From Actinomycetes bacterium (GTDB taxonomy: Bacteria > Actinomycetota > Acidimicrobiia > Acidimicrobiales > Acidimicrobilacustridaceae): a DNA stretch of 64,000 bases. Within the stretch, counting starts at the first letter, position 1, and each line of letters starts with the position of its first letter. Positions 7,762-18,004 of the stretch are shown piece after piece. Below the pieces are notes generated by a model. The model did not search any database. It was not told the DNA's origin and worked only from the letters and a program-made list of their open reading frames with translations. The position numbers and the translations under genes are program-made. The DNA is taken from positions 36,845-100,844 of the forward strand of contig JBAXGZ010000001.1 in NCBI GenBank assembly GCA_037139155.1. Reading direction: 5' to 3'.

Positions 7762-8379
7762 TTACTTGGAATAGAGCTCGACGATGAGCTGCTCGCGCAC
7801 CGGCACGTCGATCTGATCGCGATGTGGTGCTGCCAGAACGGTGACACTGAAGCCACCGTCGCCAGACTCGAGCCACGCCGGAGGCGTGCGATCGAGAACC
7901 TCGCGGTTCCACTGGATAACGACCAACTCGCGGGTCTTGTCGCGAAGAGTGATGATGTCGCCCTTACGCACGCGATAGCTCGGGATGTCGACGCGCTTGC
8001 CGTTGACATTGATGTGTCCATGGCCCACGAACTGACGAGCCTGAGGACGAGTCGCTGCCCAACCGGTGCGGTACACGACGTTGTCGAGACGCATCTCGAG
8101 GAACCGGAGCATGTTCTCGCCGGTCACACCCTCGCGACGGTTCGCTTCCTCATAGAGGTTGCGGAACTGCCTCTCGGAAAGTCCATACGTGAAACGCGCC
8201 TTCTGCTTTTCCTGCATCTGGAGCAGGTACTCGCTGGGGTTGCCACGGCGACGCGTACGTCCGTGCTCGCCTGGTGGGTATGGGCGCTTCTCGAGGGCGA
8301 CAGTCTCGCCCTTCGTGCCGAAAATGTTGGTGCCGAGACGACGCGAAACGCGGGCCTTCGGGCCGGTATAACGAGCCAT
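7762..8379 (-). CDS. rpsD: 30S ribosomal protein S4
   Basis: MARYTGPK, QEKQKARF, RLDNVVYR, ELYSK. Start trimmed to ATG 8379. Confidence 0.99.
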   Translation of the reverse strand: MARYTGPKARVSRRLGTNIFGTKGETVALEKRPYPPGEHGRTRRRGNPSEYLLQMQEKQKARFTYGLSERQFRNLYEEANRREGVTGENMLRFLEMRLDNVVYRTGWAATRPQARQFVGHGHINVNGKRVDIPSYRVRKGDIITLRDKTRELVVIQWNREVLDRTPPAWLESGDGGFSVTVLAAPHRDQIDVPVREQLIVELYSK

Positions 8380-8381
8380 GT

Positions 8382-8780
8382 TCAGACCCTCCGACGCTTG
8401 GGCTGACGGCAACCGTTATGCGGAACCGGAGTGACATCCTTGATTCCGGTCACTTCGATGCCAGCACTCTGGAGGCTGCGGATCGCCGTTTCACGACCGG
8501 AACCCGGTCCCTTGACGAGCACGTCGACCTTGCGGACGCCATGTTCCATGGCGCGCTTGGCGCATTGCTCGGCAGCCATCTGCGCTGCAAACGGCGTCGA
8601 CTTACGCGAGCCCTTGAAGCCGACGTTGCCGGCCGAAGCCCACGACAGAATGTTGCCGTCCTGGTCGGAGATGCTGACGATGGTGTTGTTGAACGAGCTC
8701 TTGATGTGAGCGACGCCGTGAGTGACGTGCTTGCGTTCCTTCTTGCGGGGCCGACGGCCGCCGCTTGTGGGCTTTGCCAT
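8382..8780 (-). CDS. rpsK: 30S ribosomal protein S11
   Basis: [23 protein letters not shown]. Start ATG 8780 overlaps the rpsM stop. Confidence 0.99.
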
Positions 8781-9157
8781 CAGCGCGCCACCTTCTTCTT
8801 GCCGGCAACGGTCTTCTTGGGACCCTTGCGTGTACGTGCGTTGGTGTGAGTGCGCTGACCGCGAACGGGAAGACCACGACGATGGCGCAGACCCTGGTAG
8901 CAACCGATCTCCATCTTGCGACGGATGTCCTGATCGACGTCGCGACGCAGATCGCCTTCGACCTTCAGGCTGGCATCGATGTAGCCACGAATCTTGTTGA
9001 CCTCTTCGTCAGTGAGGTCGCGAACTCGGGTATTCGGACTGATTTCAGTGGCTTCACAAATCTGCTTGGCAGTTGTGTTACCGATTCCGTAGATGTAGGT
9101 AAGGCTGATTTCCAGGCGCTTTTCACGCGGGATATCAACACCGGAGATACGTGCCAT
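8780..9157 (-). CDS. rpsM: 30S ribosomal protein S13
   Basis: [25 protein letters not shown]. Confidence 0.99.
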
Positions 9158-9160
9158 GGA

Positions 9161-9274
9161 TCAGCCCTGCCGTTGCTTGTGACGAGGGTTTTCACAAATG
9201 ACCTGCACGCGACCATGGCGGCGGATCACCTTGCACTTCTCACAGATCTTCTTGACGCTTGGGCGTACTTTCAC
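9161..9274 (-). CDS. rpmJ: 50S ribosomal protein L36 (Zn-binding type)
   Basis: Hand translation from GTG 9274: [37 protein letters not shown]. Too short for the ORF track. Confidence 0.98.
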
Positions 9275-9390
9275 TGCGTTTGTTCCTTTCGCCCGGACTC
9301 TGCCGGGAACATCGGAGCGAAGTTGTGAGCCGAAGCCACACCCCTCCGATGGGTCCGATCCTTCTGATCAGACACTCGCTTGTGTTCAGT

Positions 9391-9426
9391 TGTCGTGTTG
9401 CTGGTGTTGCTGGTGTTGCTGGTGTT
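9391..9426. repeat. 9-bp tandem repeat (AACACCAGC)x3 plus a degenerate fourth unit
   Basis: Minus strand reads T-AACACCAGC-AACACCAGC-AACACCAGC-AACACGAC, beginning inside the infA TAA stop. Confidence 0.85.
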
Positions 9427-9649
9427 ACTTGTACCGATAAGTGATCCGACCACGAGTCAGGTCATACGGCGTCAGCTCAACTTGGACGCGATCACCGGGC
9501 AGGATACGGATGTAATGCATCCGCATCTTTCCGGAGATATGGGCCAAAACTTTGTGGCCATTTTCGAGTTCGACGCGGAACATGGCGTTCGGCAGCGGCT
9601 CGGTGACCGTTCCTTCCAGAACGATCGCGTCTTCTTTGGGCTTAGCCAG
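9425..9649 (-). CDS. infA: Translation initiation factor IF-1 (CTG start inferred)
   Basis: [41 protein letters not shown] lies 8 nt upstream of an in-frame CTG at 9649. Confidence 0.97.
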
Positions 9650-9855
9650 GACACTGTCTCCTGTGTGATGGATCTGAAAACCCTGCTCAGGACCGCGCAA
9701 AGGCGGGTTCCCGGACAAGGGCGGACTGAAGACCCTACCGGTCGGACCCGCTGGCTCCAAATGCGCCTCTGAAGGGCCGAGAGAGTGCGATCGCTCTGGC
9801 CGCCCTCAGGGGTACACCAGTTCGACTGTAATCTTCGCTTCCTCTTCGACCCCGA

Positions 9856-12800
9856 TCACGATTCCTTGCGGAGCGCGAGGTGAAACGAGGTGAATGTCCG
9901 CCCCATGTGCTCAAGCAGGATATGGGGATAACGGGCATAGGTGACGTGGTGCGTCCAAAGTCCGCCGAGCTGCGCAACCTGGCGATTTTGGTCTTCAGCA
10001 ACGTCAAGGAAGGGTGAGCGCGACGCCCAGGTCTCGGGGGACACCGAAGCATCGAACGGTTCAATCAACGACCACTTTCGATCGCCGAGGAAGACCGTTC
10101 GGATGTCCTCGTCATCAAAGAGCAGAGCCCCAGGGATCCCTGGGCGATCACCCTCGAGGCGGAACTCGGAAGCGACCGAGAGAATTCCCCCGGGACGCAG
10201 GACTCGCCACGCCTCGTCGAGCGAACGTGCCACGTCGTTTCGGTCACCGAAATGCTCAACGGAACTCGACGAAAACACACCGGAGACGCTCTCGTCGGGA
10301 AGGTCGAGCGCGAGGGCGTTCATATCCTCCACTCGCAGGCGCGTCGGGTCCCAAATGAACGGCCAGTGTCGTCCTGGATTGACGAGCATCGAAGAATCAG
10401 CGCTCTCATCCCAGCCTTCGGCTAGGTAGAGATCAGTCGCGATGACCTCCTTCGCGAAACGGGTCAGATAGAACACGGTCGGTTCATTTCCCGCACCAAC
10501 ACCGAGGAAACGATGAGATCCGTCGAGCAAACCAGCCTCGCGAAACGAGAGAACGGCCATCGCTACTTCCCAGTATTTGCGATATTCACGAGCCGATGGG
10601 AACTCGGGACCGAAACGCAGCAGCTCATGCGCAAACACATCACGAATCACATCGCGAAGTCGCGGTGTCACAAAATCTTCGACCTCACAAATTTTCGAAA
10701 GGGAGAGGTTCCGTTCAAGGAGTAACGGTTTCTCGATCACTAGTTCCGAAGCACGATCTTGAACACGAATCGCGGGGAGATCTTCGCAGAGCCACTCGGT
10801 GACTCTCCGAAATTCTTCCTCGAAGCGAAGTGGATCGACGTTCGAGCGATAGCGATCGGTTTGGATCGCAACGAATGTGGATCGATTCGCGACTGTGGCT
10901 CGGAGCGCTCGCAACGCGTCGATCGGATCGTTCGGTGAGAAATTCCAGGGTCCGTTACCGAGCAATTCATCGTGCGCCGCAATCGAAGACAACACGACTG
11001 GGGTTCCGCGTTCAAGGGACTCAATAACCGAGAGTGAAAAACCTTCATGAAGCGACGGGATAATGACCGCTTCAGCACTCCGAAGTATCGAATCGAAATC
11101 GTCATCCGCGATCTGACCTCCAATTCGAAAGCGATTCCGTTCAAGCCCTAGCTCTAGCGCCAGCGTCGTCAACGCGACCCGATGCTCATCGGACATCGAG
11201 GCAATGACGACGACATCGAGATCGGTTCGATCCAGAACAGCAAACGGAACTGCTGCCGCCACACCCACAAGGAGATTTTTGTGCGGGAGCCCATTTCCCA
11301 CAACGACAACGTGTGATCGTCGAGTCGTTCGTGATTCTCTCCCTGCTTGCGTCACTGATTCGCCCAGCCGTGTCAATCCCGGCGCACATCCCGTTTCTAC
11401 GATGCACTCGGGGCGAACCCCCAACTCGATTGCCTCGGCAGTCGACGACGCGGAAAGAGTAAGCAGCTTCCCGTACCCCCCGATGCATTCAAGTCCATAT
11501 TGATACTCCAGAAACTCAGCATCTGTTCTCAAAAAACTGTCTGGGTAGGTTCCCATAATCGAATCAAGCCACACTCCAGCGCTACGCACCGATGGCGACC
11601 TCGACAACCGCACCTGTAGATCGGTTTTTCGGTGGATAAACGGGGCTAACTGAAGAAAAGATCCAACCCGTCGACCATTCTCCCGTCCCCATACGCCGTC
11701 GAATCGCTCAGCAAGGTCCGCCGGAAGTGGCGGTAAGTCCATCGAAGCAAGTTGCCATACCTCTACGGCATCAGGAACCGAAGCAAGAACTACCTCGAGG
11801 GCATTTCGAGCATGGGTGCGTGTGCCACACATGACCGCCAACTGGGCCCCTCGAGTGTCAATCAAGAGCACTTTCGGCCAATCAACATCTCCTGCCGGGT
11901 CTGTGCCTATCGAACGGAACCTTCGCAACTCGCTCAGCCCCGCCGCCGCGGCCTCGTCTCCTGAAAGCGATTCGATGAGTTCCCACTCCCGATCGTCAAG
12001 CAACAGTGGTGATGTTGTTCGTCGGGAACGGAGACGAGCAGTGACGGACTTTGCCATTTTGTGAGAACCGGAATGATCCGAGATGGTCGCGGTTCTCGAA
12101 CCAATGGTCGGCGCAATCCGCTCGAAGGCACGACCCGGAGCACTGAACTCGGCGACTTTTGCTTGGACGTTCGATGGATTGCTCAATTGCTTGCGCCGAA
12201 GTCGCCAGAGGTGGTTGGCGAGGGGGAGCACGAGTACCCGAAACGGACGGGCGAGTTCCACAAGCACTCGGCCAAGTTCGTACTCCCAACTTGCCTCAAG
12301 GGCCCAGATGCGATGTTCGTTGGAGTTTGCCCGATGTTCTTCAGCAGCAATCCGAGCGTCGCGTTGTTTGAGTTCCTCCCGACTTTGCCGCAACGCGACT
12401 TCGGCTTCCTTTACTTGCTTATCTCGCTCAAGCACTGCGCGGGTCAGTTGCGCCTCTGCCTCACCGTGTCCTTCACCGAAGGCTGCCTTCTGAAGCGCTT
12501 CAAGCAACGGCCATTGGAAAAATCCATCGATTGGAGAAACCGGTTGTGCGAGACGTTGCCGCAGGTCGGGTCGGTCTGCTCTTGAGTAGAACCGATTGAT
12601 CCCATCATCGATCGAGAATTCATACCCCGCTTCGAGAACAACTGGTTCCCAACTCGCATGGGACGGTGCCCACGTCGACGGGTCTATTGATTCAATGACC
12701 AACACCAAAGGACGGAAACGTTTCCAATCATTGGAGGAAATAACTTCTTCTTCGGCTCCCTCAACGTCGATCTTTAAAAACCCAATTTCTCGGTTTTCCA

Positions 12801-13224
12801 AGTAGCGGTCGAAAAGCTCCTTGAGAGTAAGAGATTGCACAGCAACAATTTCTCTCCGCTCATCGAGTGCACCGGAGAATGTCTCGGCCTCGGTATAGAT
12901 CGAGGAAAGATCGAGGTGGGGATACCGCAAGGTGAATTCAATCTCTCCCGAACGACGCGAAACGGCAACCTGCAAAGTCAGATCGCGGGGACGCTCACTC
13001 GATAGGAGTGATGCATTCGGACCCGGCTCAACATTGATGCCGCTCCAACCCCTTTCGGAAAAGAGTCGGGTCACCGAGAAATCTGTCGGATGCCCGGCAC
13101 CAATATCTACATAGATGCAGTCGGTCTCAGTCGATAACGCCTTCCAGAGACGGACATCTTCGAAGTTCTGCGCGTAGGAAATCGGTGCGACGTGTACCTG
13201 ATCGTCACCCTCAACAGAAGTCAT
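9856..13224 (-). CDS. Multidomain FkbM methyltransferase + coiled coil + GT4 glycosyltransferase + class I SAM methyltransferase (1122 aa)
   Basis: FkbM: SYAQNFED, YVDIGAG, GINVEP, LKIDVEGAE. Heptad-rich segment EAEAQL...ALEASW. GT4: PSLHEGFSLSVIES, GTPVVLS. C-terminal methyltransferase: FLGVGAG, SSSSVEHFG. Confidence 0.8.
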   Translation of the reverse strand: MTSVEGDDQVHVAPISYAQNFEDVRLWKALSTETDCIYVDIGAGHPTDFSVTRLFSERGWSGINVEPGPNASLLSSERPRDLTLQVAVSRRSGEIEFTLRYPHLDLSSIYTEAETFSGALDERREIVAVQSLTLKELFDRYLENREIGFLKIDVEGAEEEVISSNDWKRFRPLVLVIESIDPSTWAPSHASWEPVVLEAGYEFSIDDGINRFYSRADRPDLRQRLAQPVSPIDGFFQWPLLEALQKAAFGEGHGEAEAQLTRAVLERDKQVKEAEVALRQSREELKQRDARIAAEEHRANSNEHRIWALEASWEYELGRVLVELARPFRVLVLPLANHLWRLRRKQLSNPSNVQAKVAEFSAPGRAFERIAPTIGSRTATISDHSGSHKMAKSVTARLRSRRTTSPLLLDDREWELIESLSGDEAAAAGLSELRRFRSIGTDPAGDVDWPKVLLIDTRGAQLAVMCGTRTHARNALEVVLASVPDAVEVWQLASMDLPPLPADLAERFDGVWGRENGRRVGSFLQLAPFIHRKTDLQVRLSRSPSVRSAGVWLDSIMGTYPDSFLRTDAEFLEYQYGLECIGGYGKLLTLSASSTAEAIELGVRPECIVETGCAPGLTRLGESVTQAGRESRTTRRSHVVVVGNGLPHKNLLVGVAAAVPFAVLDRTDLDVVVIASMSDEHRVALTTLALELGLERNRFRIGGQIADDDFDSILRSAEAVIIPSLHEGFSLSVIESLERGTPVVLSSIAAHDELLGNGPWNFSPNDPIDALRALRATVANRSTFVAIQTDRYRSNVDPLRFEEEFRRVTEWLCEDLPAIRVQDRASELVIEKPLLLERNLSLSKICEVEDFVTPRLRDVIRDVFAHELLRFGPEFPSAREYRKYWEVAMAVLSFREAGLLDGSHRFLGVGAGNEPTVFYLTRFAKEVIATDLYLAEGWDESADSSMLVNPGRHWPFIWDPTRLRVEDMNALALDLPDESVSGVFSSSSVEHFGDRNDVARSLDEAWRVLRPGGILSVASEFRLEGDRPGIPGALLFDDEDIRTVFLGDRKWSLIEPFDASVSPETWASRSPFLDVAEDQNRQVAQLGGLWTHHVTYARYPHILLEHMGRTFTSFHLALRKES

Positions 13225-13278
13225 TTTGGATCAAAATCTCCGCATAGATATCGTCAATCTTCGGTGCGTACGGGCACC

Positions 13279-13290
13279 TAACGTAGCCCT
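13279..13290 (+). promoter_or_regulatory. Possible -10 element giving a leaderless transcript
   Basis: TAACGT ends 6 nt before ATG 13291, with no Shine-Dalgarno sequence. Confidence 0.35.
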
Positions 13291-14760
13291 ATGCCACCTG
13301 ACGTCCACCCGTTTCCCATGGGTGCCGCCCGCAGTCTCCAACTTCTGTCGAAGTTGCTTTCTTCGCCGGTCGTTGTGATCGATGCCGGAGCGCGATGGGG
13401 TGTCATGCCTTCGTGGTCCGCCCTCGGTAACCAAGTGAATGTCATTGGATTTGAACCCGAACCAGAAGAGGCTCGTGAACTTGAGTCGAAGTATCGCGAC
13501 GATGACCAGATTGAAATCGTGGCGATGGCGTTGGGATCGACGGCAGGGAACATTCCTCTGAAAGTCACGCCAGATGCGTCGGGATCTTCGTTCTACACTC
13601 CAAATATTGGTGACCGGATGTCACCAGGTGTTGATCTCGACGTGGTCGCGACTATCAACGTTGAAATGACCACACTCGACGATTGGGTCGCTTCTTCGCG
13701 ATTCGATCGAGTGGATGCCATGAAACTCGACGTTCAGGGTGCGGAATATGAAATATTTCTCGGCGCATCTGATTCGCTTTCGACAACACGAATCCTCCAA
13801 ACCGAAATGCATATGAATCCCCTGTACGAGGGAGCGAAACTTTTCGGGGACAATGATGCTCTTCTCCGAAGTCATGGTTTTGAGTTGTGGATGCTCCCAA
13901 CGCTTGCCCACTACCGCCCAAACCGCGATGGCGGCGCCGTCATAGATCGCGTCGATGTTCATTGGTTCAATGACATTCCTGTTCCCGTTCCCACCGAAGG
14001 AGCACAACTTTCTTGGGCCGACGCGATCTACATAAAGAGTGATTTCGCGCGCATCGTTGATGGCACCTCCGCGGAATCCCTCCTGCGCGATGCCGTTCTT
14101 GCGATTGGCATGGACCAATTTTCACTTGCGATTGATGCCCTGAATGCAGCGAGGTCGCTCGCCAAGCCTGAGACTCATGCCGTCATCGATGCTGCTGCTT
14201 TGTCGTTGCGCTACCAATCGCCCAGTCTCGCCTTCGCAAACTCCCGGATAGCCCACCTCGACTCGATCGCCCAACCGCTCACCGATTCCTATTCGGTCGA
14301 TTTGCGCGCACCCCTTAACGGATGGGGATGGCATGACCCGCTTCCAACTCCCGATGGTGGATGGATCCGCTGGACCGGTCCGCAACGAGAGTCGTCCGTG
14401 CATATCCCCATCACGTTGGACGTTGGTTCGATCATCAGAGTCGTGGTTGTCCGCGCTGCTGCCGCTGAACTCATCGAGTCAGTTGTCCTTGAGGTAAACG
14501 GAGTTGTCGTCGAAACCGTTCTCACTGAATCGGAAATCGCCGGTATTCCGACCTTCATCATCGAAGGTCGCGTTACTCACACTTGGGAAGAATCCCATTC
14601 GCGACTGATTCTGCGGGTGGCGAAAACCGTGCCGTGGAAATCAATTGATGAGTCTTCGAACGACGCGACCGAATATGGGATTGCCATCAAGGACATCACC
14701 GTCTCGCCGGAAAAATCGACGTGGCGAACTCTGCTCGTGAAGAAGTTCAGGGGAGCGTAA
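13291..14760 (+). CDS. FkbM family methyltransferase with C-terminal beta-rich domain (489 aa)
   Basis: VIDAGAR, VIGFEP, MKLDVQGAEYEIFLG, QLSWADAIY. C-terminal GWGW..IRWTG..LEVNG segment. Overlaps the map stop convergently by 14 bp. Confidence 0.8.
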   Translation: MPPDVHPFPMGAARSLQLLSKLLSSPVVVIDAGARWGVMPSWSALGNQVNVIGFEPEPEEARELESKYRDDDQIEIVAMALGSTAGNIPLKVTPDASGSSFYTPNIGDRMSPGVDLDVVATINVEMTTLDDWVASSRFDRVDAMKLDVQGAEYEIFLGASDSLSTTRILQTEMHMNPLYEGAKLFGDNDALLRSHGFELWMLPTLAHYRPNRDGGAVIDRVDVHWFNDIPVPVPTEGAQLSWADAIYIKSDFARIVDGTSAESLLRDAVLAIGMDQFSLAIDALNAARSLAKPETHAVIDAAALSLRYQSPSLAFANSRIAHLDSIAQPLTDSYSVDLRAPLNGWGWHDPLPTPDGGWIRWTGPQRESSVHIPITLDVGSIIRVVVVRAAAAELIESVVLEVNGVVVETVLTESEIAGIPTFIIEGRVTHTWEESHSRLILRVAKTVPWKSIDESSNDATEYGIAIKDITVSPEKSTWRTLLVKKFRGA

Positions 14761-15490
14761 GAATTTCGGGGCCATCGGGGCCGATCGCAATGGTGTGTTC
14801 GAAGTGGGCAGCCCAAGATCCGTCAGCCGAAAGCACCGTCCAACCGTCCTCGGTAAGGAAGGTCTCGGCCTCGCCAATGGTCACCATCGGCTCCACGGCG
14901 AGGGTCATGCCCTTCTTGAGCTTCCCGCCCTTCCCCGGCACCCCGTAGTTGGGAACCTCCGGGGCCTCATGCATGGCTCGCCCGATGCCATGGCCTACAT
15001 AGTCGCGGACCACTGAAAAGCCGGCCTGCTCAACCACGGCCTGAACCGCGGCACCGATGTCACCCAGCGTGTTGCCCTCGACCATGGCTGCGATGCCCGC
15101 GGCCAGTGAGGCCTCGGTCACCGAAATGAGTCGAGCCGCCTCGGGAGAGATTTCCCCCACCCCGGCGGTAAATGCGGCATCGCCATGCCAACCCTCGACC
15201 ACCGCACCACAATCGACGGAAATGATGTCGCCCTCGTTGAGCACGATTGGGCCTGGGATGCCATGGACGATCACGTCGTTGGGTGACGCGCAGATGACTG
15301 CGGGGAAGCCGTGATAGCCGAGGAAGTTCGACGTCGCTCCCCTGTTGTCAATGACTTTCCGTCCGATGGCATCGAGGTCGGCAGTGGTGACACCAGGACG
15401 AATCGCAGCGCGGATCTGTTCGTGCATCTCGGCGACGACACGACCGGCGGCGCGCATATGTCGAAGTTCGTCCTGCGAACGAGTTTTCAT
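14747..15490 (-). CDS. map: Methionine aminopeptidase type I
   Basis: SVDCGA, WHGDAAFT, GHGIG, AVEPM, AHFEHT. Confidence 0.98.
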   Translation of the reverse strand: MKTRSQDELRHMRAAGRVVAEMHEQIRAAIRPGVTTADLDAIGRKVIDNRGATSNFLGYHGFPAVICASPNDVIVHGIPGPIVLNEGDIISVDCGAVVEGWHGDAAFTAGVGEISPEAARLISVTEASLAAGIAAMVEGNTLGDIGAAVQAVVEQAGFSVVRDYVGHGIGRAMHEAPEVPNYGVPGKGGKLKKGMTLAVEPMVTIGEAETFLTEDGWTVLSADGSWAAHFEHTIAIGPDGPEILTLP

Positions 15491-15497
15491 TCGAAAC

Positions 15498-16145
15498 TCA
15501 GCGCGAAAGACGAGTGTCGATGGTGCTCAGAAGACGACCAAAGACCTCGTCGGGACTACCAAGTCCGTCAACTTTGACCAACAAACCTGACGATTCATAA
15601 AAGTCAATGGTTGGTTGGGTTTCTGTGGTGTAGGCAGCAAGGCGCTTGGCAATTGATTCGGGGGTGTCGTCCGCGCGTTGAACAACTTCGCCCCCACACT
15701 TATCGCACACCCATTCCGTTGACGGCGGCGCGGCGACGGAGTAGATCGCCCCGCATTGTGCACACACGCGGCGAGATGAAATACGCTCAAGTACAACGTC
15801 TTCAGGAACGACAAGGTCGATCGCGACATCGATGGTTGCGAACTTCGACATCCCTTCGGCTTGCACAACCGTGCGCGGAAAGCCGTCAAGAAGAAAACCG
15901 TTTGCTTGCACATCGGCTTGGTTGAGTCGTTCTTCCACCACGCCGAGAATGATCTGGTCCGAGACAAGGCCACCGGCGTCCATCACGGCCTTCGCTTCGA
16001 TGCCAAGAGGCGTACCGGCGGCAACCGCAGCGCGCAGCATGTCTCCGGTGGAGATGTGCGGAGTTCCGTAATGCGCTGAAAGCCGCTCGGACTGAGTGCC
16101 CTTGCCTGCTCCCTGCCGTCCGAAGATGAGCAGACGAGCGGTCAT
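15498..16145 (-). CDS. adk: Adenylate kinase (long Zn-lid type)
   Basis: GRQGAGKGT, HISTGDMLR, LLDGFPR, lid CAQC...CDKC. Confidence 0.98.
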   Translation of the reverse strand: MTARLLIFGRQGAGKGTQSERLSAHYGTPHISTGDMLRAAVAAGTPLGIEAKAVMDAGGLVSDQIILGVVEERLNQADVQANGFLLDGFPRTVVQAEGMSKFATIDVAIDLVVPEDVVLERISSRRVCAQCGAIYSVAAPPSTEWVCDKCGGEVVQRADDTPESIAKRLAAYTTETQPTIDFYESSGLLVKVDGLGSPDEVFGRLLSTIDTRLSR

Positions 16146-17458
16146 TACTTCAGGAATCCTTCATAGTTCCGCATCATCAACTGGCTATCGATCTGCTTCA
16201 TGGTCTCGAGGGCGACGCCCACCGCGATGAGGATCGAGATACCGGTGAAGGACACCTGCGTACCTGGAAGGTAGGTAGTGAGGATGTAGGACGGAACCAG
16301 TGCAACAGCAGCGATGAAGAGAGCGCCGGGAAGGGTGATTCGTGACAGCACCTTGGCGAGGTAACGCTCAGTCTGGGGACCGGGACGAATGCCAGGAATA
16401 AAGCCACCCTGCTTACGAAGCTGATCAGCCTGCTTCACCGGATCGAAGGTGATGGCGGTGTAGAAGTAGGCGAACCCAATGATCAGAAGACCGAAGATGA
16501 TCATATGAATCGGAGCATTAGGCGTAACGAGGTTTGAGTTCACCCAATCCTGCGTGCTCTTACCCCAACCGTCAGCTGGCAACACGAAGCTGAGCAACTG
16601 CGGAAGGTACAGAACCGAACTAGCGAAGATGATCGGGATAACGCCCGACTGGTTCACCTTGAGGGGGATGTAGGTGCTCTGACCGCCGTACTGACGACGA
16701 CCAACCACACGCTTGGCGAACTGCACGGGGATTCGACGTTGACCCTGTTCGACATAGACGATTGCGACGGTGATGAGCGCATAGCCGGCGAGAACCAGGA
16801 TCACAGCGATCCATCCACCGTTGGCCTTGATCGTGGCCATCTGGCTCGGGAGCAAGGACACAACCGAGGCGAAGATCAGCAATGACATGCCGTTGCCGAT
16901 GCCACGCTGGGTGACAAGTTCACCCATCCACATAAGCAGCGCAGTACCGGTCGTGAGCGTGAGGATGATGAGCAGCACGCGCCCCACGGTGAAGTTGGGG
17001 ATGAGGTCAAGGCCAGTGGTGTTGCCTCTCGTGAGACCACCGCCGCCGTTATGGAACAGATAGGCCAAACCAGTGGCCTGAAGAATGGCGATGCCCATCG
17101 TCACATAACGGGTCCACTGTGTGATCTTGCGCTGACCAACAGCGCCCATGTTCTGCCATTCCTCAAGCTTGGGAATAACGACACCGAGGATCTGCATGAT
17201 GATCGACGCAGTGATGTACGGCATGATGCCAAGAGCGAAGATCGCGAAGTTGGTGAGTCCACCACCGGAGAACAACTTCAGGAATGCCAGCACGCCACCC
17301 GAATCGGCTTGCGACTTGAGTTGCTTAAGCGCCGCGGTATCAATTCCGGGAACGGGAAGATGAGCGCCCAGGCGATACAGGGCGATGATCAGCAACGAGA
17401 ACAGGACCTTGTTGCGAAGGTCCTGGACCTTGAAGATGTTCTTGAGATTTGCGAGCAC
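16145..17458 (-). CDS. secY: Preprotein translocase SecY
   Basis: IFALGIMPYITASII, GIGNGMSL, GGFIPGIRPG. GTG start at 17458. Confidence 0.99.
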   Translation of the reverse strand: MLANLKNIFKVQDLRNKVLFSLLIIALYRLGAHLPVPGIDTAALKQLKSQADSGGVLAFLKLFSGGGLTNFAIFALGIMPYITASIIMQILGVVIPKLEEWQNMGAVGQRKITQWTRYVTMGIAILQATGLAYLFHNGGGGLTRGNTTGLDLIPNFTVGRVLLIILTLTTGTALLMWMGELVTQRGIGNGMSLLIFASVVSLLPSQMATIKANGGWIAVILVLAGYALITVAIVYVEQGQRRIPVQFAKRVVGRRQYGGQSTYIPLKVNQSGVIPIIFASSVLYLPQLLSFVLPADGWGKSTQDWVNSNLVTPNAPIHMIIFGLLIIGFAYFYTAITFDPVKQADQLRKQGGFIPGIRPGPQTERYLAKVLSRITLPGALFIAAVALVPSYILTTYLPGTQVSFTGISILIAVGVALETMKQIDSQLMMRNYEGFLK

Positions 17459-17508
17459 CGAGGTCACTCCTACCGCCGGCTACGAGACCAGCAGTTCGTC
17501 AACAGTCG

Positions 17509-17997
17509 TCAGCGGTTCGTGAACTGATTGCCCTTTGCGGGAGGACGACGCTCGCCCCATGGCAAAGGAATGGTCTCGACGGTACCGCCAGCGGCAGTGA
17601 TCGCGGCTTCGGCCGACTTCGAGAACGCATGTGCTCGAACGGTCACGGCACGCGTGATCTCGCCACGACCCAACACCTTCACGAGGGAGCCCTTTCCGAC
17701 AAGGCTTTGCTCTAACAGCGACACCGGATCGACAATGTCGAGACCTGAATCGTTGATGGTGTCGAGGTTGATGGCCTGGTATTCGACGCGGAAGGGGTTA
17801 TTGAAACCGCGAAGCTTCGGGACACGCATATGCAGCGGGTTCTGACCACCCTCGAAACGAGCGGGAATGGACGTACGCGCGCTTTGGCCCTTGGTACCGC
17901 GGCCTGCGGTCTTGCCGCCCTTGCCACCAATACCGCGGCCGACGCGCTTGCGGCGACGGTTGGAGCCCTCAGCGGGCTTGAGATCATGAATCTTCAC
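17509..17997 (-). CDS. rplO: 50S ribosomal protein L15
   Basis: RVGRGIGG, GRGTKGQ, FEGGQNPL. GTG start at 17997. Confidence 0.98.
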   Translation of the reverse strand: MKIHDLKPAEGSNRRRKRVGRGIGGKGGKTAGRGTKGQSARTSIPARFEGGQNPLHMRVPKLRGFNNPFRVEYQAINLDTINDSGLDIVDPVSLLEQSLVGKGSLVKVLGRGEITRAVTVRAHAFSKSAEAAITAAGGTVETIPLPWGERRPPAKGNQFTNR

Positions 17998-18004
17998 GAT
18001 GTCC

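Follow-up and report, generated by a model that had tools for sequence, protein, structure and literature searches.

An accessory islet with a predicted glycan-modifying gene pair between map and infA in an Acidimicrobiales genome

In the synthesis of O-polysaccharides that depend on ATP-binding cassette (ABC) transporters, multi-module polymerases and terminators have been described (WbdD, WbbB and ORF6 of the K. pneumoniae O7 locus), and methyl-capping coiled-coil terminators are known for the O antigens of Klebsiella and E. coli (PMC11231755). The genes for the mycobacterial methylmannose polysaccharide (MMP) are those encoding ManT, MeT1, pMeT3 and MmpH (PMC9883506). At the level of the genome, accessory gene sets of a few kilobases can occur as flexible genomic islets in the spacers of conserved core operons, and are exchanged via their flanks by homologous recombination. 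Here we describe a locus that touches on all of these. The window (i.e. the whole stretch of 64,000 nucleotides that was analysed, C1:36845-100844) comes from an Acidimicrobiales metagenome-assembled genome (MAG; GenBank assembly GCA_037139155.1, contig JBAXGZ010000001.1) of 2.61 Mb in 195 contigs, which is 95.5% complete. In it, ~4.98 kb with two divergently transcribed genes lies between map, encoding a type I methionine aminopeptidase, and infA, encoding initiation factor IF-1.

The inserted segment resembles flexible genomic islets in its size (5 kb), in the lack of an integrase, an att site or a tRNA, in its atypical GC content and in its glycan-modification cargo. It is also patchy among congeners at one identical site, and the same slot holds other cargo elsewhere. 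It differs from them in the slot itself, which is situated between the spc-type and the infA/alpha ribosomal operons, among the most conserved gene strings of bacteria; the exchange by flank recombination that is a feature of such islets would be a probable route here. The island is a flexible genomic islet with glycan-modifying cargo. Our preferred explanation, to which we give a probability of about 0.72, is that it represents a genuine accessory islet, with a portable divergent gene pair placed in the spacer between two transcription units and serving in glycan decoration.

The larger of the two proteins is like WbdD, WbbB and O7 ORF6 in being a single polypeptide with glycosyltransferase (GT) and methyltransferase modules and a long helical coiled-coil-like element, in a genome that has a Wzm/Wzt locus. 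Unlike those proteins, it has no kinase module, its methyltransferase is of the FkbM type, and no sequence similarity was detected; the gene is neither linked to transporter genes nor co-varies with them, and the host belongs to the Actinomycetota and is not Gram-negative. With the MMP genes, the pair shares a soluble GT4 glycosyltransferase that is accompanied by O-methyltransferases in the absence of a transporter, and ManT (7QSG) was the best sequence match in the PDB. However, the activities are fused here whereas four separate genes encode them in the MMP system, the ManT match is local and generic, the methyltransferase families differ, and no MeT1-like component turned up (MmpH was not searched for). 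As regards the site, mapA (Rv0734) and infA (Rv3462c) of M. tuberculosis are distant from each other, which marks the map-infA junction as a natural breakpoint in Actinomycetota rather than an indivisible operon; a large-scale rearrangement is responsible there, in contrast to the 5-kb cassette here.

The evidence for an insertion came from relatives with an empty site. The nearest of these to the window were L001 and L002 (91-93% identity in map). In blastn comparisons the homology to L001 and L002 ended at 14751-14757 and restarted at 9767, and 15-30 bp replaced the ~4.98 kb (9768-14750) that is missing from most congeners. The GC content of the islet was 55.4% as against 59.3% for the genome (standard deviation of 5-kb windows, 1.4%), and a GC content as low as this was seen in just 0.9% of the 1836 genome-wide 5-kb windows. 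The GC content at third codon positions (GC3) placed both islet genes at the 2nd-4th percentile among long open reading frames (ORFs). A preliminary description of this DNA had proposed an AT-richer insert of ~5 kb at the map-infA junction with two divergent FkbM genes, and the empty-site relatives, the sliding GC and GC3 analyses and the ORF coordinates bore out each of these points. The minus-strand gene (9856-13224), which runs in the same direction as the ribosomal operons, encodes a 1122-residue protein with four modules; the plus-strand gene (13291-14760) encodes a 489-residue protein of the FkbM methyltransferase family (PF05050 and TIGR01444). The 66-bp AT-rich region between them (13225-13290) is presumed, from a reading of the sequence, to hold the promoters of both genes. 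The ORF list gave only these two plausible genes, with no integrase, transporter or tRNA in the islet, and a search for border repeats at its edges yielded short chance matches only. We considered an integrase-mediated genomic island and rejected it, as the segment was without an integrase or recombinase, flanking direct repeats or an adjoining tRNA.

Since the source is a MAG of 195 contigs and the GC content of the islet is below that of the genome, an assembly artefact had to be weighed, in which a chimeric join would have put foreign DNA between map and infA. The preliminary description had itself named a chimeric assembly as an argument against its view. We observed that identical junctions were present in five independent assemblies (G019, G030, G025:C135, L128 and L129), of which L128 and L129 are metagenome contigs with both islet genes, and that G019 was collinear with the window across 9.6 kb at 79.5% identity. 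The synonymous divergence (dS) of the islet also equalled that of its flanks. The chimera is effectively refuted by these observations, and we assign it almost no probability.

We further examined the distribution of the islet in the genus. A match to map was found in 28 congeners, of which 27 were informative (i.e. the region downstream of map was visible; the contig of G002 ended inside the gene). Four of the 27 were occupied, while the other 23 had a map-infA gap of ~100-250 bp. Both islet genes were present in G000 and G019, whereas G030 and G025:C135 had the large gene only, co-directional with map and infA. Between G000 and G019, dS was 1.25-1.26 for the islet genes and 0.81-1.38 for the flanks; as these values are equivalent, the islet has diverged along with its flanks and cannot have arrived recently in either of the two genomes. 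The ratio of nonsynonymous to synonymous divergence (dN/dS) versus G019 was 0.12 for the 489-residue gene and 0.13 for the large gene, and the islet genes are under purifying selection. The occupied genomes were scattered on a tree of adk and map, on which at least three changes are needed. The earlier claim that the cassette is 'fixed' was not supported, as it was found in only 4/27 informative congeners that are scattered on this tree, with one MAG (G025) holding both versions of the locus. The 277-bp spacer of G030 aligned to the 3' end of map plus ~12-14 nt past map, and also to the first 55 nt of the 489-residue gene and a part of its N-terminal region, with a score ~4 standard deviations above shuffled controls. 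This alignment points to the two-gene form as the earlier one, with a later deletion in G030 of most of the 489-residue gene. In its two-gene form, the islet probably reached the slot a single time within the genus, and its later fate would have been inheritance, loss or exchange, probably by homologous recombination via the highly conserved flanks.

In the G025 MAG, L094 (G025:C29) was the empty version, with an intact map, and L123 (G025:C135) the occupied one. The map gene of L123 (1410-2115) matched in two overlapping frames and is probably frameshifted. The two versions point to strain heterogeneity, and may reflect a mixture of strains or a decaying copy.

The 489-residue gene converges on map, and the stop-side overlap of 14 bp that had been described between them (14747-14760) was confirmed. 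In G019, L128 and L129 the overlap was absent, and 15-26 bp separated the two stop codons. The final 14 residues of the 489-residue protein remained unaligned and were of low model confidence. As it occurs in the window genome only and involves a non-conserved, low-confidence protein tail, the overlap is incidental, and does not have the meaning that had been attached to it.

To place the site in a wider context, 80 Acidimicrobiia loci with map were surveyed, of which 68 also had infA downstream on the same contig. The map-infA gap was below 400 bp in 50 of the 68 loci and 0.6-4.8 kb in the remaining 18. The cargo of these larger gaps (a pyridine-nucleotide oxidoreductase, GAF histidine kinases, a TauE exporter, a GT4, an HNH protein and a MacB-type ABC transporter) was unrelated to the FkbM/GT4 cassette. 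In at least seven further Acidimicrobiaceae loci (L043, L051, L054, L056, L067, L072 and L073), map was followed by rpsM at ~300 bp, and no infA match was found within 10 kb of map. In those genomes infA must be situated elsewhere. Within Acidimicrobiia, breaks at the map-infA junction thus recur, and it serves as a docking site. The view that map and infA are normally contiguous therefore stands for 23/27 informative congeners and 50/68 Acidimicrobiia loci, but not for the remainder, and the site is not an unusual one for an insert, with unrelated cargo in 18/68 loci and at least seven more without infA there. Class-wide conservation of the pair at map-infA, which the preliminary description had named as an argument against its own view, was looked for and was not seen.

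The islet had also been placed inside an essential operon. When 28 leaders from the genus were aligned, we observed a promoter-like element, TTGGAG-N17-TAGGGT (9732-9760, minus strand), directly downstream of the insertion point and upstream of infA, which was kept in occupied and empty genomes alike. Both hexamers persisted even in divergent congeners where the sequence between them had changed. As this element precedes infA with or without the islet, infA probably has its own promoter at 9760-9732. The islet would then be located in the spacer between the stop codon of map and the promoter-like element, between two transcription units and not within one, which does not agree with the earlier placement. 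A scan with consensus promoters and terminators gave fewer matches than shuffled sequences and missed the infA element, because each of its hexamers fits the E. coli hexamers at just 3/6 positions.

The identity of infA (9425-9649, minus strand), the right flank of the insert, was clear from TIGR00008 (129.5 bits). Its apparent start codon is CTG (9649-9647), 7 nt past an AGGAGA Shine-Dalgarno-like motif; at the homologous position, CTG was seen in 25/28 aligned genus loci and GTG in three basal ones (L115, L117 and L118). Gene callers overlooked infA in L128 and L129, leaving a seemingly 'empty' stretch of 650 bp. The promoter and leader of infA (9650-9767, ~118 nt) were ~91% identical between species, as compared to 50-60% identity at synonymous sites. 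The predicted fold of the infA leader was no better than that of shuffles (z -1.45), as was that of the 3' untranslated region of the large gene (z -0.7), and we accordingly propose neither a terminator nor a structured leader. The infA leader had no match in Rfam, and over 8000-18000 as a whole Rfam gave no match at E <= 1. The stop codon of infA is where a perfect tandem repeat of 9 bp begins (GTGTTGCTG, 3.6 copies; 9395-9426), which occupies the first part of the infA-rpmJ spacer.

Four modules could be distinguished in the large protein, all encoded on the minus strand. The first (residues 40-203; 12616-13107) is an FkbM methyltransferase domain, with scores of 86.9 bits for PF05050 (E 2.2e-24; curated cut-off 22.7) and of 50 bits for TIGR01444 (cut-off 37.7). 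In the AlphaFold2 (AF2) model, which was built with homologue alignments and had a mean predicted local distance difference test score (pLDDT) of 79, this methyltransferase spanned residues 20-230. It is followed by a long, coiled-coil-like helical hairpin of 95 residues (252-347; 12184-12471), modelled as the helices H252-311 and H313-347 with a pLDDT of ~60-70. The third module is a retaining GT4 glycosyltransferase (residues ~450-815; 10780-11877), with matches to PF00534 (47 bits) and PF13692 (46.1 bits) that are above the cut-offs of 26.4 and 27. The model predicts a GT-B fold of two Rossmann domains for residues 450-815, and the EX7E glutamates, E727 and E735, were invariant across 24 homologues. 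The last module (residues ~840-1122; 9859-10707) is a predicted class I S-adenosylmethionine (SAM) methyltransferase that matched PF08241 (Methyltransf_11) at 40.2 bits. Invariant columns are dense in this module, and no other part of the large protein is as well conserved. It shows weak similarity to sugar O-methyltransferases, among them the D-glucose O-methyltransferase 6UV6, and also to MitM. Residues 231-639 gave no Pfam match at E <= 5 and no sequence match in the PDB. The preliminary description had seen a cargo of methyltransferases only; the FkbM domains were indeed found, but the large protein additionally holds the GT4 and Methyltransf_11 modules.

In Foldseek searches the GT module matched SenB (the best match), MshA, PimA and ManT, with target-normalised template modelling (TM) scores of 0.6-0.7. 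The closest relative by sequence in the PDB was the ManT of M. hassiacum (7QSG, E 8.5e-15; the next match was at 2e-9). The match to ManT, of 36 bits, spanned just ~130 residues around the nucleotide-sugar site, and PimA and MshA matched the same stretch.

The 489-residue protein also scored above the curated FkbM cut-offs (74.8 bits with PF05050, 85.5 bits with TIGR01444). Its model (mean pLDDT 79) consists of an FkbM methyltransferase at residues ~28-250, a helical linker at 261-326 and a C-terminal beta-sandwich at ~330-475. The beta-sandwich had no Pfam match (E <= 5) and no sequence match in the PDB, and a Foldseek search with the whole model returned generic class I methyltransferases only. 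Class I methyltransferase folds are predicted for the methyltransferase modules of both proteins. No hydrophobic stretch with the length of a membrane helix occurs in either of the two. An anti-phage defence role was considered and set aside, as neither islet protein matched a PADLOC model at E <= 0.01; a match to PF20706 ('GT4-conflict') was limited to 40 residues.

In a database search, 44 relatives were obtained for the large protein and 34 for the 489-residue protein, several of them as pairs on one contig. The ~44 relatives of the large protein were found among 5.8 billion proteins, and every named one was from Acidimicrobiia. In other genera of this class, the divergent pair was found at unrelated loci with 42-47% identity: in L124 with a glyoxalase gene on one side and a GT1 and a two-component system on the other, and in L126 beside a polysaccharide deacetylase. 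L125 had the large gene alone. The divergent layout was kept in L091, L124, L126, L128 and L129. The two divergently transcribed genes together form a portable module. In the contexts seen, they were not consistently accompanied by a gene for a transporter, a flippase or a polymerase or by a sugar-nucleotide gene, and the earlier statements that integrase, transporter and sugar-nucleotide genes are absent and that the methyltransferases are of the glycan type were supported. In L126 (6399-9874) the large gene was called as two products, one of 955 residues (FkbM and GT4) and one of 177 residues (Methyltransf_11), as the result of a natural split or else of a frameshift.

These observations allow different roles to be weighed for the pair. 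One is that the large protein, like WbdD, WbbB or WsaE, is the chain terminator or length setter of a surface polysaccharide whose export depends on an ABC transporter. The hairpin would be a ruler, methylation would cap the chain at its non-reducing end, and this cap would be read for export by the C-terminal domain of Wzt. Proteins that combine several GT and methyltransferase modules with a coiled-coil ruler are an established part of this pathway (PMC11231755), and a 95-residue helical hairpin lies between the catalytic modules of the large protein. The genome has, on contig C75 (C75:1815-10503), a locus with rmlC-rmlB-rmlD, a GT2, a large membrane protein, Wzm, Wzt and a further GT2, preceded by a 624-residue protein of repeated ~100-residue domains; the C-terminal extension of this Wzt has a weak match to Wzt_C (24.9 bits, E 3e-5), which is below the cut-off. 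However, a Wzt with the C-terminal domain was found in 31 of the 34 congeners, both with and without the islet, so that core polymer export cannot depend on the cassette. The cassette was never linked to Wzm/Wzt in four genomic contexts, there is no kinase module, and the PDB searches detected no WbdD-type sequence similarity. We consider a terminator role rather unlikely. The absence of membrane segments and of linked transporter or lipid-carrier genes in any context would agree with a cytoplasmic synthase that is complete in itself and makes a polymethylated oligo- or polysaccharide, similar to the 3-O-methylmannose system (ManT, MeT1 and pMeT3) but with the activities fused in one chain. 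In this case all the proteins would be soluble, as they appear to be, one GT with three methyltransferase domains would suit alternating glycosylation and methylation, and ManT 7QSG is, by sequence, the best solved-structure relative of the GT module (PMC9883506). Full-length orthology to ManT was nevertheless not seen, the match being confined to the ~130 residues at a generic EX7E site that is shared with PimA and MshA. PDB profile searches with both islet proteins gave no MMP methyltransferase; no hydrolase gene adjoins the pair, and no MmpH-like hydrolase was seen nearby, although none was searched for. We regard such a synthase as unlikely.

A bolder form of this proposal would make the pair a self-sufficient cytoplasmic synthase of a polymethylated oligosaccharide, functionally like that for mycobacterial MMP or methylglucose lipopolysaccharide (MGLP). 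A single hairpin-scaffolded enzyme, together with a partner methyltransferase, would combine glycosyl transfer with two or three regiospecific O-methylations, and the whole would be a plug-in moving between strains via the ribosomal-operon flanks; this seems quite improbable to us. The pair could also have a tailoring function and act on a small-molecule glycoside or on a natural product instead of a polysaccharide. FkbM takes its name from a macrolide O-methyltransferase, and methyltransferases of the FkbM and MitM/AtmM types often act on secondary metabolites. The C-terminal methyltransferase is weakly like 6UV6 and MitM, and the best fold match of the GT part, SenB, is a small-molecule selenosugar synthase. 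But every one of these matches is weak and generic, the genome is small (2.6 Mb), and no core biosynthetic genes (polyketide synthase, nonribosomal peptide synthetase or similar) adjoin the pair in any context. A tailoring role is, in our estimate, very unlikely.

We return to the accessory islet with a function in glycan decoration, which we favour. On one side of it would be the spc-type operon ending in map, and on the other the infA-rpmJ-rpsM-rpsK-rpsD-rpoA-rplQ unit with its own promoter-like element. The pair would encode soluble enzymes with three SAM-methyltransferase domains and one retaining GT4, the helical hairpin setting the first methyltransferase apart from the remaining modules of the large protein. 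Since both proteins are soluble, their role is most likely sugar addition and O-methylation on a glycan or oligosaccharide made elsewhere. A sugar would be added by the retaining GT4 and then O-methylated at one to three positions, on an acceptor made by core genes elsewhere in the genome, and the outcome would be a strain-variable glycan decoration. Some of our observations weigh against this explanation. In none of the four contexts were glycan genes linked to the pair, and any substrate would be a guess. Nor does the Wzm/Wzt export locus, which is found genus-wide, co-vary with the islet, where the lack of a co-occurrence signal follows from Wzt being nearly universal in the genus. The tree was made from two flanking genes, which may themselves have recombined, so that the number of gains and losses is uncertain, and the support for a remnant in G030 is modest (z ~4).

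In the window, the minus-strand gene order is secY, adk, map, the islet, infA, rpmJ, rpsM, rpsK, rpsD, rpoA, rplQ, truA, rplM, rpsI and glmM. The final gene of the spc-type operon and left flank of the insert, map (14747-15490, minus strand), was identified by TIGR00500 at 297.8 bits (cut-off 171). It is preceded by adk (16145-15498) and secY (17467-16145). Downstream of infA are rpmJ (9161-9274) and rpsM (9157-8780), all of these being on the minus strand.

Together, these observations describe ordinary accessory biology, i.e. an optional insert and no disruption of an essential operon. They do not overturn the current understanding. The junction of the spc-type and infA-alpha units is not inviolable, and in Acidimicrobiia accessory genes can make repeated use of it as a docking slot; inserts at map-infA should not be counted as misassemblies by annotators or in synteny-based binning checks. 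The small uncharacterised enzyme family, with three methyltransferase domains across the pair and a GT4, is a candidate source of strain-level glycan diversity in abundant freshwater and soil Actinomycetota, and its multi-module enzymes may merit biochemical study.

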